The notes under the pieces: generated by a model
The model's input: only the letters and a program-made list of their open reading frames with translations
Told to the model about the DNA's origin: nothing
The model's database searches: none
Part shown: in pieces, positions 47,605 through 48,263 of the stretch
Layout: each line of letters starts with the position of its first letter
Position numbering within the stretch: the first letter of the stretch is position 1
DNA from: Escherichia phage 121/2022-2B
Reading direction: 5' to 3' (one strand)
Sequence record: OR958571.1
DNA: 64,000 bases
Position numbers and translations under genes: made by a program

Positions 47605-47660
47605 CTCCTCAGTAGTTGATAGGGTAATAGTATCACTACCCTATCTAAAAGTAAACTCAT
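47605..47660 (-). promoter_or_regulatory. T4-type early promoter with palindromic arms flanking the -10
   Basis: Minus-sense GTTTAC-18-TACTAT; GATAGGG...CCCTATC inverted repeat around the -10. Confidence 0.5.
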
Positions 47661-47890
47661 TTTTTACGAAAAATTGATTTATTTTCTGCTGCCCATTTTT
47701 CAATAACTGCAGCCGGACCAGTAACAACAATTTTATCACCGTAATCTTCTGCGGCGAGTTGACCGAAATTATCTAATGCATCACGAAGAACTCCATGAGG
47801 CATTTCACCCATTTTATCTTTCTTGCCAGTGTAAATAAACTCAACTTTTACATCAGAAGATTCAGCGATAAATTCTTGATACGTTTTCAT
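47657..47890 (-). CDS. internal-protein-like small protein
   Basis: ATG at 47890 gives MKTYQEFIAESSDVKVEFIYTGKKDK...; GGAG site. Confidence 0.55.
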   Translation of the reverse strand: MKTYQEFIAESSDVKVEFIYTGKKDKMGEMPHGVLRDALDNFGQLAAEDYGDKIVVTGPAAVIEKWAAENKSIFRKK

Positions 47891-47911
47891 TTTATTCTCC
47901 AATTTCACATT

Positions 47912-47975
47912 TGTTTTGATAGGGTAATAGTATCACTACTAAAACCCCGTGTAAACAACTTTGTGAAATTGTTTA
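47912..47975 (-). promoter_or_regulatory. T4-type early promoter
   Basis: Minus-sense GTTTACA-17-TACTAT with the same GATAGGG/CCCTATC flank. Confidence 0.5.
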
Positions 47976-48263
47976 TTACAAAAGATTTTTAGCAATAATC
48001 TTGAGATGTGCTGCAGAAATATGTTTAGCTTTAAACAACGCAGTTTCTTCGGCAGGAGAGATAACGATTGTAGCACCATCCTTTTTAGCAGACCACCCAT
48101 CACCTAGGTAAACAGTACCTTTGATTTCTTCGCCATCAACCAGACTAATCATTGGTTTACCTTCTCGTCCTTTATTTGCTTTAATAACTTCAGAAGTAAG
48201 AGTAGCTTCGGTAATGGTAGAAAACCGGGTAGTTGTAGAAGTAAATTCTTTAAATGTTTTCAT
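47976..48263 (-). CDS. internal-protein-like protein (IPI position)
   Basis: ORF track 95 aa beginning MKTFKEFTSTTTRF; sits before 57B where T4 ipI lies. Confidence 0.55.
   Translation of the reverse strand: MKTFKEFTSTTTRFSTITEATLTSEVIKANKGREGKPMISLVDGEEIKGTVYLGDGWSAKKDGATIVISPAEETALFKAKHISAAHLKIIAKNLL

Follow-up and report, generated by a model that had tools for sequence, protein, structure and literature searches.

The question raised by this locus is what is encoded by two small genes that lie side by side next to gene 57B of Escherichia phage 121/2022-2B, and how the pair came to stand there. The DNA analysed (the window) is a 64 kb stretch, in which the region 47300-48900 shared 98.4% identity with phages vB_EcoM-101117BS1 and JK38 and had matches in 782 phage records; the window is a genome segment of a T4-like phage (Tequatrovirus). 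A preliminary description, made from the letters of the DNA, had reported two adjacent small genes at 47657-48263, with N-termini MKTYQEFIAES and MKTFKEFTS of the capsid-targeting type. Both ORFs were found with exactly these coordinates and N-termini, and the leaders agree with known ones, at 10 of 10 residues with T4 IPII and IPIII for the 77-aa protein and at 17 of 19 with T4 IPI for the 95-aa protein. When all six frames of the 64 kb window were scanned, the leader motif occurred in only three ORFs. We conclude that the locus is very probably the ipI internal-protein slot of Tequatrovirus, filled by two known cassettes in tandem, a T4-type ipI followed by a T6-type ip6, with Ip6 expected to follow the route of IPI and a GmrSD-family enzyme as its likeliest target.

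All genes of the locus lie on the minus strand and are transcribed from high to low coordinates (Table 1). Comparison of the window ORFs with the T4 annotation gave the transcription order gene 2, gene 3, gene 1, 57A, 57B, ipI, ip6, trna.4, trna.3, trna.2 and the tRNA block. Within the slot the order is 57B, PeSL, ipI, PeSL, ip6, PeSL, trna.4, where PeSL denotes a composite promoter/stem-loop element. The 57B gene is T4 57B, identical except for the annotated start, and is found at the same position in T4, T6, RB18 and VR20; this conserved gene anchors the left side of the variable slot, and its transcription precedes that of the ip genes. The preliminary description had placed the two genes upstream of 57B, which is correct in plus-strand coordinates only and is reversed relative to transcription: 57B is transcribed first, and ipI and ip6 are therefore downstream of it. 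The conserved right anchor is trna.4, whose product is hydrophobic and which has its own PeSL promoter, with a -35 hexamer that begins at the base next to the ip6 stop codon. A GTG-extended ip6 ORF of 83 aa (GTG at 47908) was considered and rejected; the start was assigned to the ATG at 47890 because the GGAG Shine-Dalgarno sequence, the promoter position and all annotated homologues agree on it.

Table 1. Features of the ipI-ip6 locus and its surroundings (positions in the window; PeSLs, leaders and mature forms as predicted).
Feature	Position	Strand	Remarks
gene 2	50433-51257	minus	
gene 1	49033-49746	minus	
57A	48791-49033	minus	
57B, Acb1 anti-CBASS phosphodiesterase family	48336-48791	minus	Pfam Acb1 PF23474, 2.6e-60
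PeSL 5' of ipI	48284-48323	minus	promoter 48294-48323: GTTTAC 48318-48323, GTGATACTAT 48294-48303
ipI, 95 aa, begins MKTFKEFTS	47976-48263	minus	
ipI leader, codons 1-19, MKTFKEFTSTTTRFSTITE	48207-48263	minus	capsid-targeting sequence and I-T-E prohead-protease site; 17/19 identical to T4 leader
mature IPI* (76 aa) and stop codon	47976-48206	minus	identity to 2JUB and to T4 IPI residues 20-95
PeSL 5' of ip6	47900-47971	minus	promoter 47927-47956: GTTTAC 47951-47956, GTGATACTAT 47927-47936
ip6, 77 aa, begins MKTYQEFIAES	47657-47890	minus	
ip6 leader, codons 1-10, MKTYQEFIAE	47861-47890	minus	capsid-targeting sequence and I-A-E prohead-protease site
predicted mature Ip6 (67 aa, 7.4 kDa, pI 6.5) and stop codon	47657-47860	minus	phrog_8111; T6 Ip6 identity
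PeSL 5' of trna.4	47618-47656	minus	promoter 47627-47656: GTTTAC 47651-47656, GTGATACTAT 47627-47636
trna.4, 61-aa predicted membrane protein	47413-47598	minus	100% identical to T4 Trna.4; phrog_1692
24-nt direct repeats TTGATAGGGTAATAGTATCACTAC, family D1	47616-47639 and 47916-47939		300 bp apart; bound ip6 cassette
tRNA block, ten genes	45816-46643	minus	
segB-like homing-endonuclease ORF	44950-45600		adjoins tRNA block
third leader-bearing protein, 157 aa, begins MKTYQEFITEA	40016-40489	minus	phrog_3155 'internal virion protein'

The 95-aa protein matched the Pfam family IPI_T4 (PF11634; described as 'Nuclease inhibitor from bacteriophage T4') at 7.3e-54 and 180.1 bits (cut-off 25), with residues 20-95 covering the whole profile (1-76 of 76). 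It is identical to T4 IPI (NP_049749) at 93 of 95 positions, both differences being in the leader, and its mature part (residues 20-95) is identical at 76 of 76 residues to chain A of the NMR structure PDB 2JUB, 'Internal protein I' (IPI*). By these matches the gene is identified as T4 ipI, and nothing counts against the identification. The gene and T4 ipI also agree in length, in the position between 57B and trna.4, in the promoter cassette and in the I-T-E site. This site (I17-T18-E19) is intact and is the sole [LI]xE site in the protein; A20 follows it, giving the predicted cleavage point.

The two leader residues that differ from T4 IPI (P13R and V14F) amount to a compensated frameshift at 48222-48227, in which CCCC has become CCC and TTT has become TTTT: the T4 codons ACC CCG GTT TCT read ACC CGG TTT TCT in the window. 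In the protein collection searched, this exact IPI variant was recorded only for Escherichia phage 121/2022-2B. The changes are either a tolerated leader variant or paired homopolymer sequencing errors.

After injection, IPI* is known to inhibit GmrSD, a type IV enzyme of E. coli CT596 (PMC3012670, PMC12373910). For the identical IPI* it has been established that the leader of the IPI precursor directs it to the prohead scaffolding core and that the gp21 protease then removes the leader. About 360 copies of IPI* are packed per head and injected with the DNA (PMC9026906), and its inhibition of GmrSD(CT596) inside the cell keeps this enzyme from cutting glucosyl-hydroxymethylcytosine DNA. The statement in the preliminary description that T4 IPI blocks a type IV restriction system thus agrees with the literature. 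Its further statement that both proteins are effectors of unknown specificity applies to Ip6 only; the mature product of the 95-aa gene is 100% identical to that of T4 and to 2JUB, and its specificity is therefore known, namely GmrSD of E. coli CT596. The IPI encoded in the window would accordingly be expected to block this enzyme after injection.

The 77-aa protein matched phrog_8111, 'internal virion protein', at 5.1e-52 over its full length (positions 1-77 of 77), and 74 of its 77 residues (96%) are identical to Ip6 of phage T6. RB18 has a homologue labelled 'similar to T6 Ip6', the VR20 homologue is labelled ip6, and the matching UniRef entry bears the name 'Ip6 putative internal head protein'. 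The gene is accordingly assigned as ip6 of phage T6, already named and annotated in hundreds of records. Compared with ip6 of T6 and its relatives (RB18, VR7, VR20 and PST-like Yersinia phages), the gene in the window has the same length, the same leader and the same place directly before trna.4. The exact protein is on record for Escherichia phage 121/2022-2B.

The mature Ip6 domain was detected in 230 phage records, with one copy in each. These fall into subgroups by identity, with 180 records at 95-100% and a second subgroup at 73-78%, and 37 alignment columns are invariant across both. A word-indexed search of 5.8 billion proteins returned 11 clusters, all of them T-even Ip6 with at least 75% identity, and an exhaustive HMMER search of 1.84 billion representatives returned three hits; no Ip6 homologue outside the T-even phages was found in either collection. 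One of the three HMMER hits (P0032) was rejected as an artefact; it is a 491-aa tandem-repeat protein, and the five matched stretches are copies of one repeat. A Pfam search with Ip6 gave no family, and a sequence search of the PDB gave only a chance match (E 1.4).

The ten leader residues of Ip6 end in Ile8-Ala9-Glu10, the sole [LI]xE site in the protein. In IPIII, the same ten residues are sufficient for packaging, that of foreign proteins included; within them, positions 4 and 7 are important for targeting, and positions 8 and 10 for processing (PMC9026906). The leader positions M1, K2, E6, F7, I8 and E10 are invariant in the Ip6 family alignment. Ip6 shares with T4 IPII and IPIII both the leader and the class, that of small, dispensable, leader-bearing head proteins. 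The mature parts of the T4 proteins, however, have no sequence similarity to Ip6, and their genes lie in another locus, beside gene e. Mature Ip6 is near-neutral (pI 6.5), whereas IPI*, IPII* and IPIII* are basic (pI 9.0-9.65, with 9.6 for IPII* and IPIII*).

The best of five AlphaFold2 models of Ip6 had a pLDDT of 81 (the others 56-60) and shows a beta-alpha-beta-beta-alpha-beta sandwich, i.e. a generic ferredoxin-like fold is predicted. The fold is supported by its agreement with an independent model in BFVD, that of VR7 Ip6 (TM-score 0.97). Searches with the model gave nothing at E <= 0.001 in the PDB (Foldseek); in BFVD they gave VR7 Ip6 together with two weak matches to small proteins of T4-like phages, and no others. 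No catalytic motif or enzyme-like homology was detected in Ip6 by the Pfam and HMMER searches. In the literature searched, no experimental evidence for packaging, cleavage or function of Ip6 was found, and a search for virion proteomics of T4-like phages yielded nothing on Ip6.

The preliminary description had also attributed an early promoter to each of the two genes, and this was borne out. The sequence GTTTAC-N14-GTGATACTAT, which is the T4 early-promoter form, is present with no mismatches 5' of ipI, ip6 and trna.4. When up to two mismatches were permitted, the window contained 12 copies of the motif, every one on the minus strand, versus 0.09 expected from shuffled sequences, an enrichment well beyond chance. 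A general sigma-70 scan also detected two of the three promoters, with a TG extension. The three intergenic regions can be aligned over about 70 nt, including the ribosome-binding site (GGAG or GGAA) and the ATGAAA start.

Each of these promoters is combined with a hairpin that overlaps the -10 region. In the element 5' of ipI this is a 13-bp stem-loop (48284-48313; -14.8 kcal/mol, z -2.65) overlapping the promoter, and in SA20RB the annotation of the equivalent element is that of a T4 early promoter with a terminator. The element 5' of trna.4, in which GTTTAC abuts the ip6 stop codon, has a 12-bp stem-loop (47618-47645; -16.4 kcal/mol, z -3.18). The element 5' of ip6 forms a long imperfect hairpin (-28.5 kcal/mol, z -6.36). 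The ip6 promoter lies wholly within this hairpin, since AATTTCACAAAG, located 5' of the -35 hexamer, pairs with ATGTGAAATT, located immediately 5' of the ribosome-binding site; RB18 shares the right arm, which differs in T6. The ip6 hairpin could form in read-through transcripts alone, and not in those begun at the ip6 promoter.

The promoter consensus given for PeSLs of PST and T4 is TTTACW-N17-TAYWAT (PMC4122927), and the window elements match it (TTTACA-N17-TACTAT twice and TTTACT-N17-TACTAT once). By sequence and predicted structure, the three intergenic elements are thus identified as PeSL cassettes. They resemble the PeSLs described for T4-type phages (PMC2839356, PMC4122927) in the consensus, in the stem-loops at the -10 region, in flanking variable genes and in holding indel breakpoints; nothing substantive differs, and the window stem-loops have no U-tract. 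A simple terminator scan of the region detected no terminator, though hairpins are present. For the RB49 and phi1 copies, both promoter and terminator activity have been demonstrated in vivo (PMC2839356).

No late promoter (TATAAATA) was found directly 5' of ipI or ip6. The nearest one on the same strand lies at 49389-49396, inside gene 1, and is likewise annotated in SA20RB. At the time of head assembly, these proteins would therefore be supplied by read-through across the stem-loops or by early synthesis.

The preliminary description had called the locus beside 57B hypervariable and had suggested its comparison across T4-like phages. When the window, T4, T6 and RB18 were aligned, all four had near-identical 57B and trna.4 flanks, and between these flanks the gene content differs, as it does in VR20. 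Each ip gene forms one cassette of 300-370 bp bounded by repeated PeSLs. In T4, ipI is followed directly by trna.4 and there is no ip6; what T4 lacks is exactly the 300-bp ip6 cassette, with a gap that runs from after GGGTTTTAG of one promoter to before GTGATACTATTACCCTATCAA of the next. RB18 (57B, ip6, trna.4) lacks exactly the ipI cassette, and the junction lies within the promoter. T6 has the order 57B, ip5, ip6, trna.4, and the replacement of ipI by ip5 is bounded by the MKTFKEF...TITE leader and the next PeSL. In VR20 the slot holds five small genes, of which ip6 is the last and the four others include ip9. The neighbour on the 5' side of ip6 is therefore ipI in the window, ip5 in T6, four small genes in VR20 and none in RB18.

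The Ip5 protein of T6 (L008 2327-2584) has an IPI-type leader (MKTFKEF..TITE) joined to an unrelated mature domain. The type of leader goes with the slot and not with the effector, as would be expected if recombination takes place within leader and promoter sequences. In the window, the ip6 cassette is bounded by the 24-nt direct repeats of Table 1, and recombination between them would yield the T4 arrangement. Relative to T4, T6 and RB18, cassettes have been gained and lost at breakpoints inside PeSLs, as published (PMC2839356, PMC4122927). We propose that the two-gene arrangement arose by this described PeSL-mediated cassette shuffling. The pairing of ipI with ip6 is a minority arrangement: the junction of the two genes was present in 20 records, compared with 291 records for IPI* and 230 for Ip6.

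To our knowledge, a target is known for only a minority of the Ips, of which there are ten or more. In the mechanism proposed here, Ip6 would be directed to the prohead core by its MKTYQEFIAE leader and cleaved behind Glu10, leaving 67 residues (7.4 kDa); the mature form would be packed and injected with the DNA by the same route as IPI, and would then neutralise a host factor acting at the moment of DNA entry. Each of Ip1, Ip2 and Ip3 blocks a GmrSD variant of its own (PMC12373910), IPII and IPIII of T4 being inhibitors of GmrSD-ECOR21 and GmrSD-ECOR17. By analogy, the likeliest target of Ip6 would be a subtype of the GmrSD-family type IV enzymes outside those assayed, a tentative choice that we hold at slightly less than even; the remaining belief is shared by two alternatives, a different immediate-early defence and the absence of any role in defence. 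A 2025 study that expressed ip4-10 in cells against a GmrSD panel saw no reproducible inhibition (PMC12373910); 8 active variants out of at least 15 groups were assayed, all assays were in E. coli, and its ip6 is equated with that of the window by name. In the same study T6, which carries Ip5 and Ip6, was still restricted by GmrSD-ECOR21 and GmrSD-ECOR17 (PMC12373910). The proposal of the preliminary description that both proteins are anti-restriction effectors thus holds for IPI, which is the T4 protein with an identical mature part (76/76), and for Ip6 it stands by analogy, with the ip4-10 panel giving no reproducible inhibition. The sequence and fold searches (Pfam, PDB, HMMER, Foldseek) gave no functional pointer for Ip6.

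The negative panel result for ip4-10 (PMC12373910) would also be expected if Ip6 were an injected effector with a target not of the GmrSD type, either another defence at DNA entry or a host take-over target. This reading, which we regard as somewhat unlikely, is consistent with the near-neutral charge of Ip6 (pI 6.5 versus 9.0-9.65 for the three characterised Ips) and with a predicted ferredoxin-like fold unlike the published description of IPI* (PMC3012670); moreover, a packaged T4 protein with a non-restriction target exists, the ADP-ribosyltransferase Alt (PMC9026906). However, the three Ips whose targets are known all inhibit enzymes of the GmrSD family, this family is very diverse relative to the 8 active variants of at least 15 groups that were assayed, in E. 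coli only, and Ip6 has no catalytic motif or enzyme-like homology. It is decidedly unlikely that Ip6 has no counter-defence role at all and is maintained only by riding on a mobile promoter cassette, be it as a dispensable protein of the core, as a filler or as a DNA-associated head protein. No phenotype of Ip6 is known, T4 IPIII also influences the rate of head assembly (PMC9026906), and the ip6 cassette is often absent, T4 and most phages with ipI being without it, all of which would suit such a protein; but the near-neutral charge speaks against a role as DNA counterion, and the conservation of the mature domain (95-100% identity in 180 records, a subgroup at 73-78% and 37 invariant columns) indicates a maintained protein. 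Patchy presence in a hypervariable slot beside Acb1 and IPI is, moreover, the usual pattern of host-range or anti-defence genes.

That the 77-aa protein is not packaged, its leader being a relic of recombination on an ordinary early cytoplasmic protein, we consider highly improbable. The early promoter of ip6, the lack of a late promoter of its own and the absence of Ip6 virion proteomics from the literature searched are all compatible with it. Most leader positions are invariant in the family, however (M1, K2, E6, F7, I8 and E10), and T4 ipI has the same early-promoter arrangement, yet its product is packaged at about 360 copies per head (PMC9026906). An injected Ip6 directed against a GmrSD subtype is retained as the preferred reading. 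With it, two injected effectors would widen the set of restricting hosts that the phage can infect.

The third leader-bearing ORF of the window (157 aa, Table 1) is situated just downstream of the lysozyme gene e, where T4 has ipIII and ipII. [LI]xE sites are present at both residue 10 and residue 20 of its product, suggesting two-step processing or a longer propeptide. Since this single protein occupies the ipIII/ipII place, the phage is apparently without T4-type Ip2 and Ip3. The tRNA block consists of ten genes (Arg, Asn, Tyr, Met, Thr, Ser, Pro, Gly, Leu and Gln); compared with the eight tRNA genes of T4, those for Asn, Tyr and Met are added and that for Ile is missing.

The literature and GenBank annotation already cover both genes, with their leaders and promoter cassettes, and the hypervariable nature of the slot, and nothing at the locus departs from described T-even biology. 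It was also observed that 57B (Acb1), IPI (a GmrSD inhibitor) and Ip6 adjoin one another, and given the match of 57B to Acb1, the three would form a contiguous counter-defence cluster. The practical value of the analysis is correct annotation: the phage carries the inhibitor IPI* of CT596-type GmrSD, the adjoining anti-CBASS nuclease Acb1 (57B) and one uncharacterised protein that is predicted to be injected. This content of IPI*, Acb1 and Ip6 bears on the prediction of phage host range.

It may also be that Ip6 is injected and inhibits a defence that does not belong to the GmrSD family, a view that its near-neutral charge, its small ferredoxin-like model and the lack of a reproducible signal in the panel suggest, and that we consider unlikely. 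If it is true, the Ip slots of T-even phages would supply ready-made inhibitors for immediate-early immunity of more than one class.
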